Shown here: one piece after another, positions 1 through 53,531 of the stretch
Layout: every line of letters starts with the position of its first letter
Numbering within the stretch: the stretch's first letter is position 1
Origin: a virus
Reading direction: 5' to 3' (one strand)
DNA length: 53,531 bases
UHGV virus genome: UHGV-0350075
Program-made: the position numbers and the translations under genes
Notes under the pieces: model-generated
Told to the model about the DNA's origin: nothing
Database searches by the model: none
Seen by the model: the letters and a program-made list of their open reading frames with translations, nothing else

Positions 1-466
1 GATACCCCGCCGCGCGTAATAGTGATTCGTTGTCAAACTTCACATCAAGCCTATTTGAAAGGCTACCATTTAGCGTTATCCCGCTGGCGGCGATCAAGTC
101 GCCTGGTATTGATGTTTTCTTGCAGCCGCAATTTAACGGCATATCAAAAACAGCTTGTTTCTTTCTTTGTTCTTCCTCACGCTCCGCTAATATCTGTTCT
201 GCCTTAAGCGCGTTATAAGCAATAAGGTCTATAAGAGTATCGAGCGGGTCGCTACCATTGCTTAAAATGGCCTCTAATCGCCCCTCCTTGAGACAAATTA
301 GTAGATCCCATACATCAAGCGGGGTTAGATTTGTCCCCTTCTTAGCGTTGTAAATAGTGGCTATTTTTGGCGCTGATTTTTCTTCTTTTCGATCGTATCC
401 GTTTTGTTCCCCTCTTGCCTCAATAGTTTCAGCCGCAAGTCTTAGCAATTCAGCCGCTTTACTCAT
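1..466 (-). CDS. hypothetical protein, partial (3' end beyond window)
   Basis: Own translation from ATG 466-464 (MSKAAELLRLAAETIEARGEQ...) appears open to position 1; start overlaps dam stop; absent from track (no in-window stop). Confidence 0.4.
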   Translation of the reverse strand, partial: MSKAAELLRLAAETIEARGEQNGYDRKEEKSAPKIATIYNAKKGTNLTPLDVWDLLICLKEGRLEAILSNGSDPLDTLIDLIAYNALKAEQILAEREEEQRKKQAVFDMPLNCGCKKTSIPGDLIAASGITLNGSLSNRLDVKFDNESLLRAAGY

Positions 467-998
467 TTTCTGCACCTCTTGCATATAGCTCTTTACGTGT
501 TATCTGCGTGAAAATACATTCATGTCTGCACCGTGGATGCCAGATCAAAAACAAGCTACCCTTATTGTTTCCGCTTGCTGGTTTCCCTGTCGCAGCATTG
601 ATAAACGCCAGCCGCCCGCGCGTGATTAATCGGCATTCGTTTGCCGTCTCCACCCCGTTCATAAACCAGTTAACAGAGATGTCGGCGGGCAACAACATTA
701 CACAGCCAATATGATTTCGGTGATGTTCCATTGCTGCCTTATCAACGAATGGCCCCGGATTCGAATATGGTGGATTAAGCCAGACATACTCACCAGGCAT
801 TGCCACCGCTCCCCACGGATAATGCAACGTGTCCATTTCTTCTGTTATATATCGCGGGATTAATGCGTTTGCCTTGTTTGCCGCCACGTCCGCGACGAAT
901 TCGAATTCACGATCCATTCCTCTAAAAACTGGTTTTGGCGTTTGCCATAAGTCCTTTATTTCTTTTGGCGTATGGCTTCCGCCGTAATCATTTTTCAT
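459..998 (-). CDS. dam: DNA N6-adenine methyltransferase (phage orphan Dam-like)
   Basis: Track ORF 179 aa; NPPY motif (WLNPPYSNP) typical of amino-MTase motif IV. Confidence 0.75.
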   Translation of the reverse strand: MKNDYGGSHTPKEIKDLWQTPKPVFRGMDREFEFVADVAANKANALIPRYITEEMDTLHYPWGAVAMPGEYVWLNPPYSNPGPFVDKAAMEHHRNHIGCVMLLPADISVNWFMNGVETANECRLITRGRLAFINAATGKPASGNNKGSLFLIWHPRCRHECIFTQITRKELYARGAENE

Positions 999-50904: not shown

Positions 50905-51308
50905 TGCTCACCCCACATATTAGTCGCGTATTCGTCAATATCCGGTAGTAGGTCGCCGCGTTCGCGGATCTTAATAAACAAGCGTCCGCCTTTTACCTTC
51001 CGGCAGCGAACAATTTTTATTGAGTCGATTTGCCCGTCATCCTTCCAGAATCCGGCATAAGTAAGGCTGTCAAAAAGGCATTTAGGGATATTATCCAGAT
51101 CTCTGATCCGGTTATCCGGCGGCGCGGCGTAAATGGCAATTGCCAGTCGGCAAGGTAGGTTAATATTTAAATTTAATAGCTCGATGATGTCTCTTACTTG
51201 TTCCCTGTATTCCTTCCCCACTTTGCTGATATAGTGAAAACCGCGCGAATGTCGGTAATAGCGATTATTCGATGGCGGGTAAGGCAGGCTAAAAGAATAT
51301 TCATTCAT
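50901..51308 (-). CDS. rusA: Holliday junction resolvase RusA
   Basis: 135 aa; close to E. coli RusA as recalled (PPSNNRYYRH, RDLDN, FDSLTYAGFWKDD, KGGRL). Confidence 0.85.
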   Translation of the reverse strand: MNEYSFSLPYPPSNNRYYRHSRGFHYISKVGKEYREQVRDIIELLNLNINLPCRLAIAIYAAPPDNRIRDLDNIPKCLFDSLTYAGFWKDDGQIDSIKIVRCRKVKGGRLFIKIRERGDLLPDIDEYATNMWGEQ

Positions 51309-51910
51309 GCTGCCTTTCTCCTTAAGGCGTCCAATTTAGCCTGATAGATGTTTATTAGCTCCTTACATTCTGCAATCGTCCATTTATGCGTATCATTGTT
51401 GTTCTCCAGAGCTACCACCCTGGCGAGGCCAATTTTTCGAATCAGCGCCGGGCGATACCCTCCGATGTTGCCGTCTAGTGTCTGGTTGCAGTGCCTACAT
51501 TGCTTATGGCAATTATCCTCGTTGAAGCGAAGGTGTCCGGCGGCGGCTACCGTCCTGTAATGACCTGCATCCCACCCGCATTGCTCACCGTAGTAAGTCC
51601 CGCAAGATATACACGGCAAGCGCGCGTCACGTTCGCGAATATAGGCGTTAAATACATTTTGAACTTGTTTGATCCAATAACTACGCGGATTTAACTGTTT
51701 ACGCTTCCGGTTGCGTTCTTCCCTCTGGCTATCACGGCGTTTCTTCCGCTCCATAGCCTTCATAGCCTTCTCACGGTCGCGGCATAGCTGGTCAAACTTC
51801 AGTTCTTCCAGACATTCATCGCTGCACCACGTTTGATTGTGATATTTAGGCTCAAAAAAAACGCCGCAGCATTTGCAACGGCGTCTTATGGGTTTTTTAG
51901 GGTTTTGCAT
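51305..51910 (-). CDS. ninG: NinG/Rap recombination protein
   Basis: Track ORF (GTG 52000) trimmed to ATG 51910; RRRCK..C, PRSYWIKQ, LPCISCGT, WDAGHYRT, LRFNE, HKQC as in lambda NinG. Confidence 0.8.
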   Translation of the reverse strand: MQNPKKPIRRRCKCCGVFFEPKYHNQTWCSDECLEELKFDQLCRDREKAMKAMERKKRRDSQREERNRKRKQLNPRSYWIKQVQNVFNAYIRERDARLPCISCGTYYGEQCGWDAGHYRTVAAAGHLRFNEDNCHKQCRHCNQTLDGNIGGYRPALIRKIGLARVVALENNNDTHKWTIAECKELINIYQAKLDALRRKAA

Positions 51911-51924
51911 AAAAACCACCCCGA

Positions 51925-52101
51925 TTATTTTTGATTCTCTGTTTCGTTCAGCCTTTCGGCGTGTCCGGCCCTTAGCCAATGTTCTAAGCATTCGTTGCAC
52001 TCGTTACAGCCTCCTTTCTTCGTGCTGCATACATTGCACATTGCACGCATAACGCTTTCTCGTTCATAGTCGTCATGCCATTGGTAATTATCAAAAGGCA
52101 T
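51925..52101 (-). CDS. NinF-like small zinc-ribbon protein (58 aa)
   Basis: Own translation MPFDNYQWHDDYERESVMRAMCNVCSTKKGGCNECNEC...; 15 nt upstream of ninG, same size and position as lambda NinF. Confidence 0.4.
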   Translation of the reverse strand: MPFDNYQWHDDYERESVMRAMCNVCSTKKGGCNECNECLEHWLRAGHAERLNETENQK

Positions 52102-52222
52102 AATGCTCTCTCCTTTTCAGGTGATTTCTACGCATTTCAGCGCTGCCGGATTTTTAAAGAGCATTTTGTTTGCTTGAAGTATACAAAATGGATACGTGCT
52201 AACAAGGTGTAAAGCGCCATTA

Positions 52223-52238
52223 TGTGACATTCATCACA
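52223..52238. promoter_or_regulatory. CRP-like palindrome TGTGACATTCATCACA
   Basis: Perfect TGTGA-N6-TCACA in 159-bp gap 52102..52260; flanked by GTATACAAAATGG and GCCATTTTGTAAAC. Confidence 0.45.
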
Positions 52239-52260
52239 CAATGACGCCATTTTGTAAACT

Positions 52261-53025
52261 TCAGTCCGGCAAAACGCGGTTGAGCGTAGTACGATTGATG
52301 GCCCGGTCGTTAGCCAGGAATACAGCACGGGCGAAGCCACGCGGCGTTAGTGAGCGGATCATCTTTGTTCGCTTTGATTTTCCGCCTAACTTCGCGTGCT
52401 GCTTACTATCTTCCCATTCATCTGGCATCGGCACAGGACGGAATAGAGGCTGCTTAAATCCATTCCCGCACCAAATACAAGTTTTCTTCGTGTAGGCGTC
52501 GCGGTCGGCAATGTATTCCGGGAAAGCGGGATGCTTATCATCTTCCGGCAGGTAGCCACCGTAAGCGCACGGATTGAAGATGAAATCCGGTTTACGCCAT
52601 AACGTTGACAATGCGCCTACCGGATTTTCCACCATCCACGGGACGTTATACATACTCGCCAGCGTTTCTACTAACTTTGCGTTATACGCTGCCTTCTGCT
52701 GAAAGTAAGGATCTTTCTTCCGCTTATCAGCGAACCAACGAGCGCCGGACACAGCAAGATCATCACACGGAGGAAATCCCAGGATAATGTCAGGATCTGG
52801 ATATACAGACAATTCAGGGGAGAACATTACCAGAAAATGGCTATCAATCCAGACGTTAACATATTCAATATTTGGATGAATTATTTTTACCCCGTCATAA
52901 TCACCGTGATTAGCGCCGTCATAGTTGAAGCAATAACATTTATAACCAGCGTCCGCCCAATCTTTAACAGCGTACCCGCTGCCGTCATACAGCGACCACA
53001 CCACCCAATTTCTAAGCCCGCTCAT
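52261..53025 (-). CDS. putative methyltransferase-like protein (degenerate cytosine-C5 MTase-like motifs)
   Basis: 254 aa; motif I-like WSLYDGSGYA, motif IV-like GFPPCDD (PC dipeptide), motif VI-like ENPVG; no sizeable target-recognition domain. Confidence 0.35.
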   Translation of the reverse strand: MSGLRNWVVWSLYDGSGYAVKDWADAGYKCYCFNYDGANHGDYDGVKIIHPNIEYVNVWIDSHFLVMFSPELSVYPDPDIILGFPPCDDLAVSGARWFADKRKKDPYFQQKAAYNAKLVETLASMYNVPWMVENPVGALSTLWRKPDFIFNPCAYGGYLPEDDKHPAFPEYIADRDAYTKKTCIWCGNGFKQPLFRPVPMPDEWEDSKQHAKLGGKSKRTKMIRSLTPRGFARAVFLANDRAINRTTLNRVLPD

Positions 53026-53525
53026 TTTCTACCCTCAAACGTGAAATAGCGGCGCATGATGATAGTAATCACCGTTACCGCTGCCATTTTTGAGATGAAT
53101 TGCATAGCTGATATTTCCGGCATAAATGCCATAAACGATAGCGTCGGGAAAATTAACGCATCACCTATGGCGGACGCTATATTTGCAGGCCAACGTTTAG
53201 AATCAAAGTCACCAGGCAAAACCCGGTAAACGCCGCCAGAAATAAGCGCACCGGAAACAACCGCGACAAATGACGCGATCGCCACCATTCCGGCGTCGTA
53301 ATTTATCAGCACAGTGATTGCGCCAGCGGCGGCGCATGTTGTAGCCGACCATTTCAGGCCGCCGTCATATAACAGGAAGTCACGGATCATCATATTGACA
53401 CACACGGCGGCTACCGTGGTGATCGGAATTACCCACGGGCCGCAATGGTTAACAATAAGATTTATGATCACGAAAACGGCGACATAAACGCAGGCTAATA
53501 ACCTGTCAATTGTCACCCTTTCCAT
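53022..53525 (-). CDS. integral membrane protein (possibly YhhQ/queuosine-precursor transporter-like)
   Basis: 167 aa, about 5 TM segments; C-terminal ASAIGDALIFPTLSFMAF resembles YhhQ-family signature; start 6 nt from window edge. Confidence 0.35.
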   Translation of the reverse strand: MERVTIDRLLACVYVAVFVIINLIVNHCGPWVIPITTVAAVCVNMMIRDFLLYDGGLKWSATTCAAAGAITVLINYDAGMVAIASFVAVVSGALISGGVYRVLPGDFDSKRWPANIASAIGDALIFPTLSFMAFMPEISAMQFISKMAAVTVITIIMRRYFTFEGRK

Positions 53526-53531
53526 TTTTAT

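Follow-up and report, generated by a model that had tools for sequence, protein, structure and literature searches.

The window analysed here (virus genome UHGV-0350075, 53,531 nt) ends with a gene resembling C5-cytosine methyltransferases that overlaps a gene encoding a small membrane protein, and a Dam-like methyltransferase gene lies close to its start. A first-pass annotation of the sequence took these genes as hints of a DNA or RNA modification (anti-restriction) module continuing beyond the window edge. The question is whether they are parts of one modification system or neighbours in an operon.

Genome context and operon layout

The two ORFs at the window end were present as that annotation described them, and the Dam-like assignment was confirmed by Pfam. 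The features discussed in this work are the following:

52261..53025, minus strand: predicted compact Dcm-like C5-cytosine DNA methyltransferase, 254 aa (phrog_757); predicted catalytic residues C87, E133 and K180/K181
53022..53525, minus strand: short VUT/QPTR (YhhQ, COG1738) membrane transporter, 167 aa (phrog_4899); its stop codon overlaps the methyltransferase start by 4 nt (ATGA)
52213..52248, minus strand: 16-bp RNA hairpin, 13 nt past the methyltransferase stop; fold -25.7 kcal/mol, z -3.9
53506..53531, minus strand: 3' end of a DUF6378 ORF, from the joined end and start translation; overlaps the VUT start by 20 nt
1..484, minus strand: 5' part of the same junction-spanning DUF6378 ORF (ATG at 484; alternative ATG at 466)
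459..998, minus strand: Dam-type N6-adenine DNA methyltransferase, 179 aa, in the same early operon (PF05869, E 3.4e-51)

The window is the whole genome, in circularly permuted form, of a temperate coliphage that is mEp021-like (mEpimmI group). The alignment with mEp021 is continuous from the window end into the window start; consequently, nothing is missing past the edge, the block from the Dam gene to the methyltransferase gene is fully visible, and the proposed extension of a module beyond the window was discarded. The region under study is 97% identical to Escherichia phage MagusPhagus and 85-88% identical to six published mEpimmI phages, including mEp021, whose counterparts are gp30 (Dam), gp31, gp32 (membrane protein) and gp33 ('putative DNA cytosine methyltransferase'). 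Joining the window end to its start yielded a 169-aa ORF with a DUF6378 domain (PF19905, E 5e-6), homologous to MagusPhagus CDS0099 and mEp021 gp31.

These genes belong to a minus-strand delayed-early operon with the order ipe, Dam, DUF6378 protein, VUT, Dcm-like methyltransferase, hairpin (t4/nutR2 region), NinF, NinG, RusA and Q. The genes on the 3' side of the methyltransferase, on the same strand, encode a NinF-like protein, NinG (PF05766), RusA (PF05866) and the antiterminator Q (PF03589). The Dam-type gene had a dN/dS of 0.06. The hairpin following the methyltransferase gene is the counterpart of the predicted terminator TERM_4 (t4) of mEp021, and nutR2 has been reported in the intergenic region that holds it (mEpimmI paper, PMC11893012). 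It was found by RNA folding and was not flagged by a simple terminator scan, because its U-tract is weak.

Some details of this region were also recorded. The hairpin apex (52223-52238, TGTGA-CATTCA-TCACA) fits the CRP half-site consensus TGTGA N6 TCACA perfectly, which may be a by-product of the palindromic stem. Approximately 150 nt of the DUF6378 gene (window ~53528 to ~142, across the junction into the 3' part) have diverged too far from MagusPhagus for a blastn alignment (147 vs. 168 nt), the homologue in the divergent relative L003 has 99 aa only, and the PHROG label 'phosphofructokinase' on families related to this ORF looks unreliable. The longest NinG ORF (51305-52000, minus strand; 231 aa, starting with GTG) runs into the NinF-like ORF (51925-52101); the NinG annotated in mEp021 has only 201 aa, which makes an internal ATG the probable true start.

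The 254-aa protein and the phage Dcm-like family

The 254-aa protein contains DGSG (14-17; SAM motif I is D14-G15-S16-G17), PPCD (85-88) and ENPVG (133-137), in the order of C5-methyltransferases, as had been noted before. The reading of PCD and ENPVG as degenerate did not hold. In an alignment of 28 family members, G15, S16, C87, E133, N134, P135 and V136 were invariant, and so were R224 and R229-G230 in IRSLTPRGFA; K180 was conserved in all 28 homologues and position 181 was a lysine in 25 of them. With PPCT(D) and ENPV as the family consensus, PCD and ENPVG are normal family motifs with no sign of decay. DNMT3B itself carries PCN.

The protein matched phrog_757 ('DNA methyltransferase') with an E of 7e-88, and more than 2397 homologues, mostly of 225-250 aa, were present in a large protein database. 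By tblastn, the Dcm-like gene was located in 1519 of 50,697 phage records, approximately 3% of sequenced phage genomes; the carriers include T1-like Drexlerviridae, rV5-like Vequintavirinae, Dhillonvirus and several hundred Klebsiella phage records. The 254-aa protein had no Pfam match at E ≤ 0.1 (the PF00145 threshold was not reached) and no NCBIfam match, and a precomputed PF00145 match existed for only 2 of the 120 homologues listed. The methylase result serves chiefly as a correction: despite its degenerate look and its lack of a Pfam match, the gene belongs to one of the commonest families of phage orphan methylases, which has one experimentally active representative (K42, see below).

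A single-sequence PDB search with the 254-aa protein gave no match, and the family profile matched PDB C5-methyltransferases weakly by sequence (E ~0.45). The fold is that of a class I Rossmann methyltransferase with motifs I (FxGxG), IV (PC) and VI (ENV) in order. The closest structures were mammalian DNMT3B and DNMT3A (scores of 14.2 and 12.6 respectively, vs. ~10 for Dnmt2), the C5-methyltransferases with the smallest target-recognition domain (TRD). Identity to their catalytic domain is only 15-17%; unlike them, the 254-aa protein has no partner subunit or regulatory domains, and its target is probably CCWGG, by analogy, instead of CpG.

The absence of a TRD, claimed in the first-pass annotation, was true of the canonical large variable domain between motifs VIII and IX. 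However, the segment at its position (about 30-70 residues, in the ~150-222 region) is highly conserved, not variable, and is among the most conserved parts of the family, with W143, R144, D176, Y178, K180, T182, W185, G214, G215, T220 and K221 invariant. This conservation suggests a fixed specificity common to the family.

Experimental work on phage KarlJaspers strain K42 bears on the activity of this family. K42 mutants escaping the retron Ec86 were all affected in a 711-bp 'Dcm-like C5 cytosine methyltransferase' gene; expression of K42 Dcm, the trigger of this retron, raised 5mC on msDNA (LC-MS), a C82A/E128A/K175A/K176A mutant gave no 5mC rise, and defence was lost once the CCTGG motif in the msDNA stem had been mutated (bioRxiv, 10.1101/2023.08.16.553469). 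The CCWGG specificity of K42 Dcm was adopted in that work from E. coli Dcm, with the msDNA motif mutagenesis as its sole support. In phages herni and KarlJaspers Bas06 (QXV82308.1), the 711-bp genes encode 236-aa proteins 60% identical to the 254-aa protein (E 6e-100 and 9e-101 respectively, the latter with 234 aligned residues, full length), and the K42 enzyme is near-identical to the KarlJaspers one. The K42 residues C82, E128, K175 and K176 align with C87, E133, K180 and K181; between the Cys and the Lys-Lys there are no gaps and the offset is a uniform +5, so the active-site residues correspond exactly. These comparisons lead us to infer that the 254-aa protein functions as an orphan DNA C5-methyltransferase and is an ordinary member of the compact phage Dcm-like family; the analogy also points to CCWGG as its site.

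The KarlJaspers/K42 enzyme and the 254-aa protein share their Cys, Glu and Lys-Lys positions, and both are compact (230-255 aa), lack a large TRD, have no restriction partner and are phage-encoded. They differ in their phages, virulent Drexlerviridae in KarlJaspers vs. a temperate mEp021-like siphovirus here. The window protein has a C-terminus 18 aa longer and PCD instead of PCT. Its gene lies in a nin-like region after VUT, whereas the KarlJaspers gene lies among small hypothetical genes with a helicase ~0.7 kb downstream. E. coli Dcm would share the chemistry of the 254-aa protein and probably, judging from the K42 work, the CCWGG site, but it is nearly twice as long (472 aa), has a large TRD and an N-terminal extension, and is paired with vsr. 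In hhalign, its match with the family profile was not significant (prob 0.3%, only the PC motif aligned).

It is very unlikely that the 254-aa protein is catalytically dead or an RNA-directed (Dnmt2/NSUN-like) relative with no DNA methylase activity. Both versions were rejected given the conservation of C87, E133 and K180/K181, the dN/dS of the gene vs. mEp021 (0.07), the in vivo DNA methylation by the 60%-identical homologue and the DNMT3 scores, which exceed that of Dnmt2. In addition, motif VI is of the ENV type and not the TC motif, the mark of RNA m5C enzymes.

As a SAM-dependent orphan methyltransferase, the 254-aa protein would attack C6 of the target cytosine with Cys87 and protonate its N3 with Glu133, and Lys180/Lys181 together with the conserved 150-222 segment would grip the DNA. 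The K42 enzyme, taken as a model, makes the 116 CCWGG sites of the phage genome its most likely targets during replication. Such methylation would protect the phage from CCWGG-directed restriction whatever the dcm status of the host, and would also make it detectable by the retron Ec86. The prediction for mEp021-group phages in general is that they have both 5mC (probably in CCWGG) and Dam methylation in their DNA, withstand restriction directed at CCWGG and are sensed by this retron.

Site avoidance was sought as indirect evidence of methylation. Neither CCWGG nor GATC (247 sites) was depleted in the window, and CCGG was not under-represented either. By contrast with these sites, GGCC (119 observed vs. 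194 expected) and GGWCC (26 vs. 41) were under-represented, at ~0.6 of the Markov expectation, which may reflect restriction-site avoidance at sites outside the cover of the phage's own methylases.

The VUT-family membrane protein and its DpdA-less context

Taken alone, the 167-aa protein had no Pfam or NCBIfam match and matched only phrog_4899 (unknown function), with 12 word-indexed homologues. An exhaustive HMM search with a 7-sequence VUT profile recovered 257 relatives, and 57 of the 60 relatives sampled matched PF02592 (Vut_1), many of them above the gathering cut-off (27.2 bits). The 7-sequence alignment gave no significant hhalign match with E. coli YhhQ; only the 60-sequence alignment succeeded (135 columns, prob 91%, E 1e-6). 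Both proteins share N22, D49, the ASF motif, D..VY and S....D...F and are homologous over ~135 columns; they differ in that YhhQ has 221 aa and the shorter phage-encoded protein is sub-threshold for Pfam on its own. The protein has a small polytopic helical membrane fold that matches ECF S-component transporters. No solved VUT structure was found by sequence, and a BFVD viral fold search with the transporter returned two unnamed weak matches only.

The YhhQ-like signature reported previously was thus borne out, and the 167-aa protein is, on the evidence of its sequence relatives, a real but divergent member of the VUT/YhhQ family. Characterised YhhQ/QPTR members import queuosine precursors (preQ0/preQ1/queuine). 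The 167-aa protein is predicted to be a six-helix S-component-like importer of small molecules, with queuosine precursors as putative substrate. Its gene is under strong purifying selection (dN/dS 0.03 vs. mEp021), and amino-acid identity to mEp021 is 98%, vs. 84% for the Dcm-like protein.

Some VUT relatives reach ~300-340 aa with C-terminal extensions (P0202, P0253 and one other alignment member); among the extended relatives, DUF5020 is present in two and a QueF-like domain, as a fusion, in one. For many other ~300-aa relatives, no Pfam match was obtained in the extension.

Only 22 phage records contained the VUT gene. Nine non-mEp isolate phages were inspected (PEAT2, Opt-719, LHE71, Lg3, Phc, RCIP0319, AB3P2, Tbat1_6 and ECO111 5-P), and in each of them VUT abuts a DpdA-like gene (~250-275 aa) that matches phrog_887 and is homologous to the PEAT2 gene annotated as 'queuine tRNA-ribosyltransferase'. 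The short phage VUT is therefore normally one half of a VUT-DpdA pair. The VUT proteins of such pairs (PEAT2 gp18-gp19; T1-like LHE71, Lg3 and Opt-719) and of the CAjan 7-deazaguanine cluster belong to the same phrog_4899, with 28-35% identity to the window protein, and in the VUT-DpdA phages as in the window the gene lies in an early/accessory block. The difference is in the neighbouring slot, which holds the phrog_887 transglycosylase in those phages and the Dcm-like methyltransferase in the window, where no transglycosylase was found anywhere.

The search for DpdA in the circularised window (six-frame tblastn with two phrog_887 queries) had 0.31 as its best E. Among the non-structural window ORFs of at least 180 aa, Pfam and PHROG scans found an ERF recombinase, repressor, replication initiator, exonuclease, DnaB and integrase, but no TGT or Que enzymes. 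The annotations of MagusPhagus and mEp021 list no DpdA, TGT or Que. FolE, QueD, QueE and QueC were likewise absent from the scanned ORFs and from the annotations of close relatives, with the transporter present. The window VUT has the look of a VUT-DpdA pair member that, in the mEp021-like lineage, stands without its DpdA partner. The VUT-Dcm arrangement without DpdA, including the 4-nt overlap, was also found in the divergent relative L003 (VUT 54% and Dcm 62% identical). Three metagenomic contigs (L006-L008) hold the nearest other VUT (46% identical), again without DpdA, and VUT is the only gene that they have in common with the window.

These observations bear on whether the phage DNA carries 7-deazaguanine, made through VUT and a transglycosylase that is host-encoded (Dpd/Tgt) or too divergent to be recognised. 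The pairing with DpdA in nine of nine other isolates and the strong purifying selection on VUT speak for it, and phages with DpdA but without preQ0 synthesis genes have been proposed to depend on uptake (PMC6884629). Nevertheless, we consider this distinctly unlikely and rejected it: no DpdA/TGT homologue was found by six-frame tblastn or by the Pfam and PHROG scans of the larger non-structural ORFs (180 aa and above). No DNA-acting DpdA is known from E. coli K-12, the laboratory host of mEp021-like phages. Moreover, the phage yhhQ was dispensable for modification in phage CAjan (PMC7544227). Any DNA modification based on queuosine precursors is unlikely without DpdA.

The retention of VUT without DpdA could imply that this phage lineage has a use for queuosine precursors that it imports, or for some other small base or vitamin, beyond DNA modification by a phage DpdA. 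We regard this as rather unlikely, together with the candidate uses that it would entail: tuning host tRNA queuosine for phage translation, feeding a host Dpd/Tgt, or supplying the neighbouring C5-methyltransferase-fold enzyme. The transporter is the more open point of the locus, as the short phage VUT normally forms a unit of two genes with DpdA, and one lineage retains only the importer. The mEp021-like VUT thus offers a simple test case for phage queuosine-precursor transporters without a DNA transglycosylase.

Relationship between the VUT and methyltransferase genes

The account that we favour, with a probability of roughly 75%, is a mEp021-like genome carrying an active Dcm-like methyltransferase and a YhhQ-type importer that are translationally coupled, yet most likely functionally independent. 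Operon packing and module shuffling in the nin-like accessory region best account for their adjacency. In other phages, the Dcm-like gene lies beside helicase or primase genes (WalterGehring, mckay and 22664BS2 among the examples listed) or among hypothetical genes without any VUT (herni and KarlJaspers, the two Drexlerviridae contexts inspected).

The alternative is that the Dam, DUF6378, VUT and Dcm-like genes form one cooperative DNA-modification/anti-restriction module in which the transporter supplies a precursor or cofactor to the C5-methyltransferase-fold enzyme; for example, the enzyme might install something other than a methyl group. This is unlikely. The gene order is kept, but synteny extends over everything from Dam to Q, and such conservation is not specific evidence. 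The Dcm-like family works alone in ~1500 other phages, and its K42 member makes plain 5mC. VUT pairs elsewhere with DpdA and not with methyltransferases; the characterised VUT substrates are 7-deazaguanine bases, with no known route into a cytosine-C5 enzyme. We rejected the joint module given the unspecific synteny, the occurrence of the Dcm-like gene alone and the DpdA pairing. Both family assignments of the first-pass annotation and the location of Dam in the same operon were retained, but its modification module was not: the methyltransferase appears to be of the standard active type, VUT and methyltransferase are likely independent, and DpdA is absent.

Some functional link between VUT and the Dcm-like enzyme is possible, because the 4-nt overlap persists in L003 at 54%/62% identity and VUT is more conserved than Dcm. 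With functional independence as the preferred reading, the locus comprises a known kind of methylase, and the strongly conserved VUT without DpdA is its one unexplained point.

Two other VUT contexts were observed. In L006 (6001-8258) and L008 (265-2534), the nearest non-mEp VUT lies in a phage-like early region without DpdA, and an N6_N4 DNA methyltransferase gene is located three genes 3' of VUT; that gene is absent from the otherwise similar L007. In LHE71 (L014; 1205-1618 and 4016-5319), a VUT-DpdA pair is accompanied, ~2.4 kb away on the other strand, by a partial Dcm-like match (~138 aa, 54%), so VUT-DpdA and Dcm-like genes can coexist in one accessory region.
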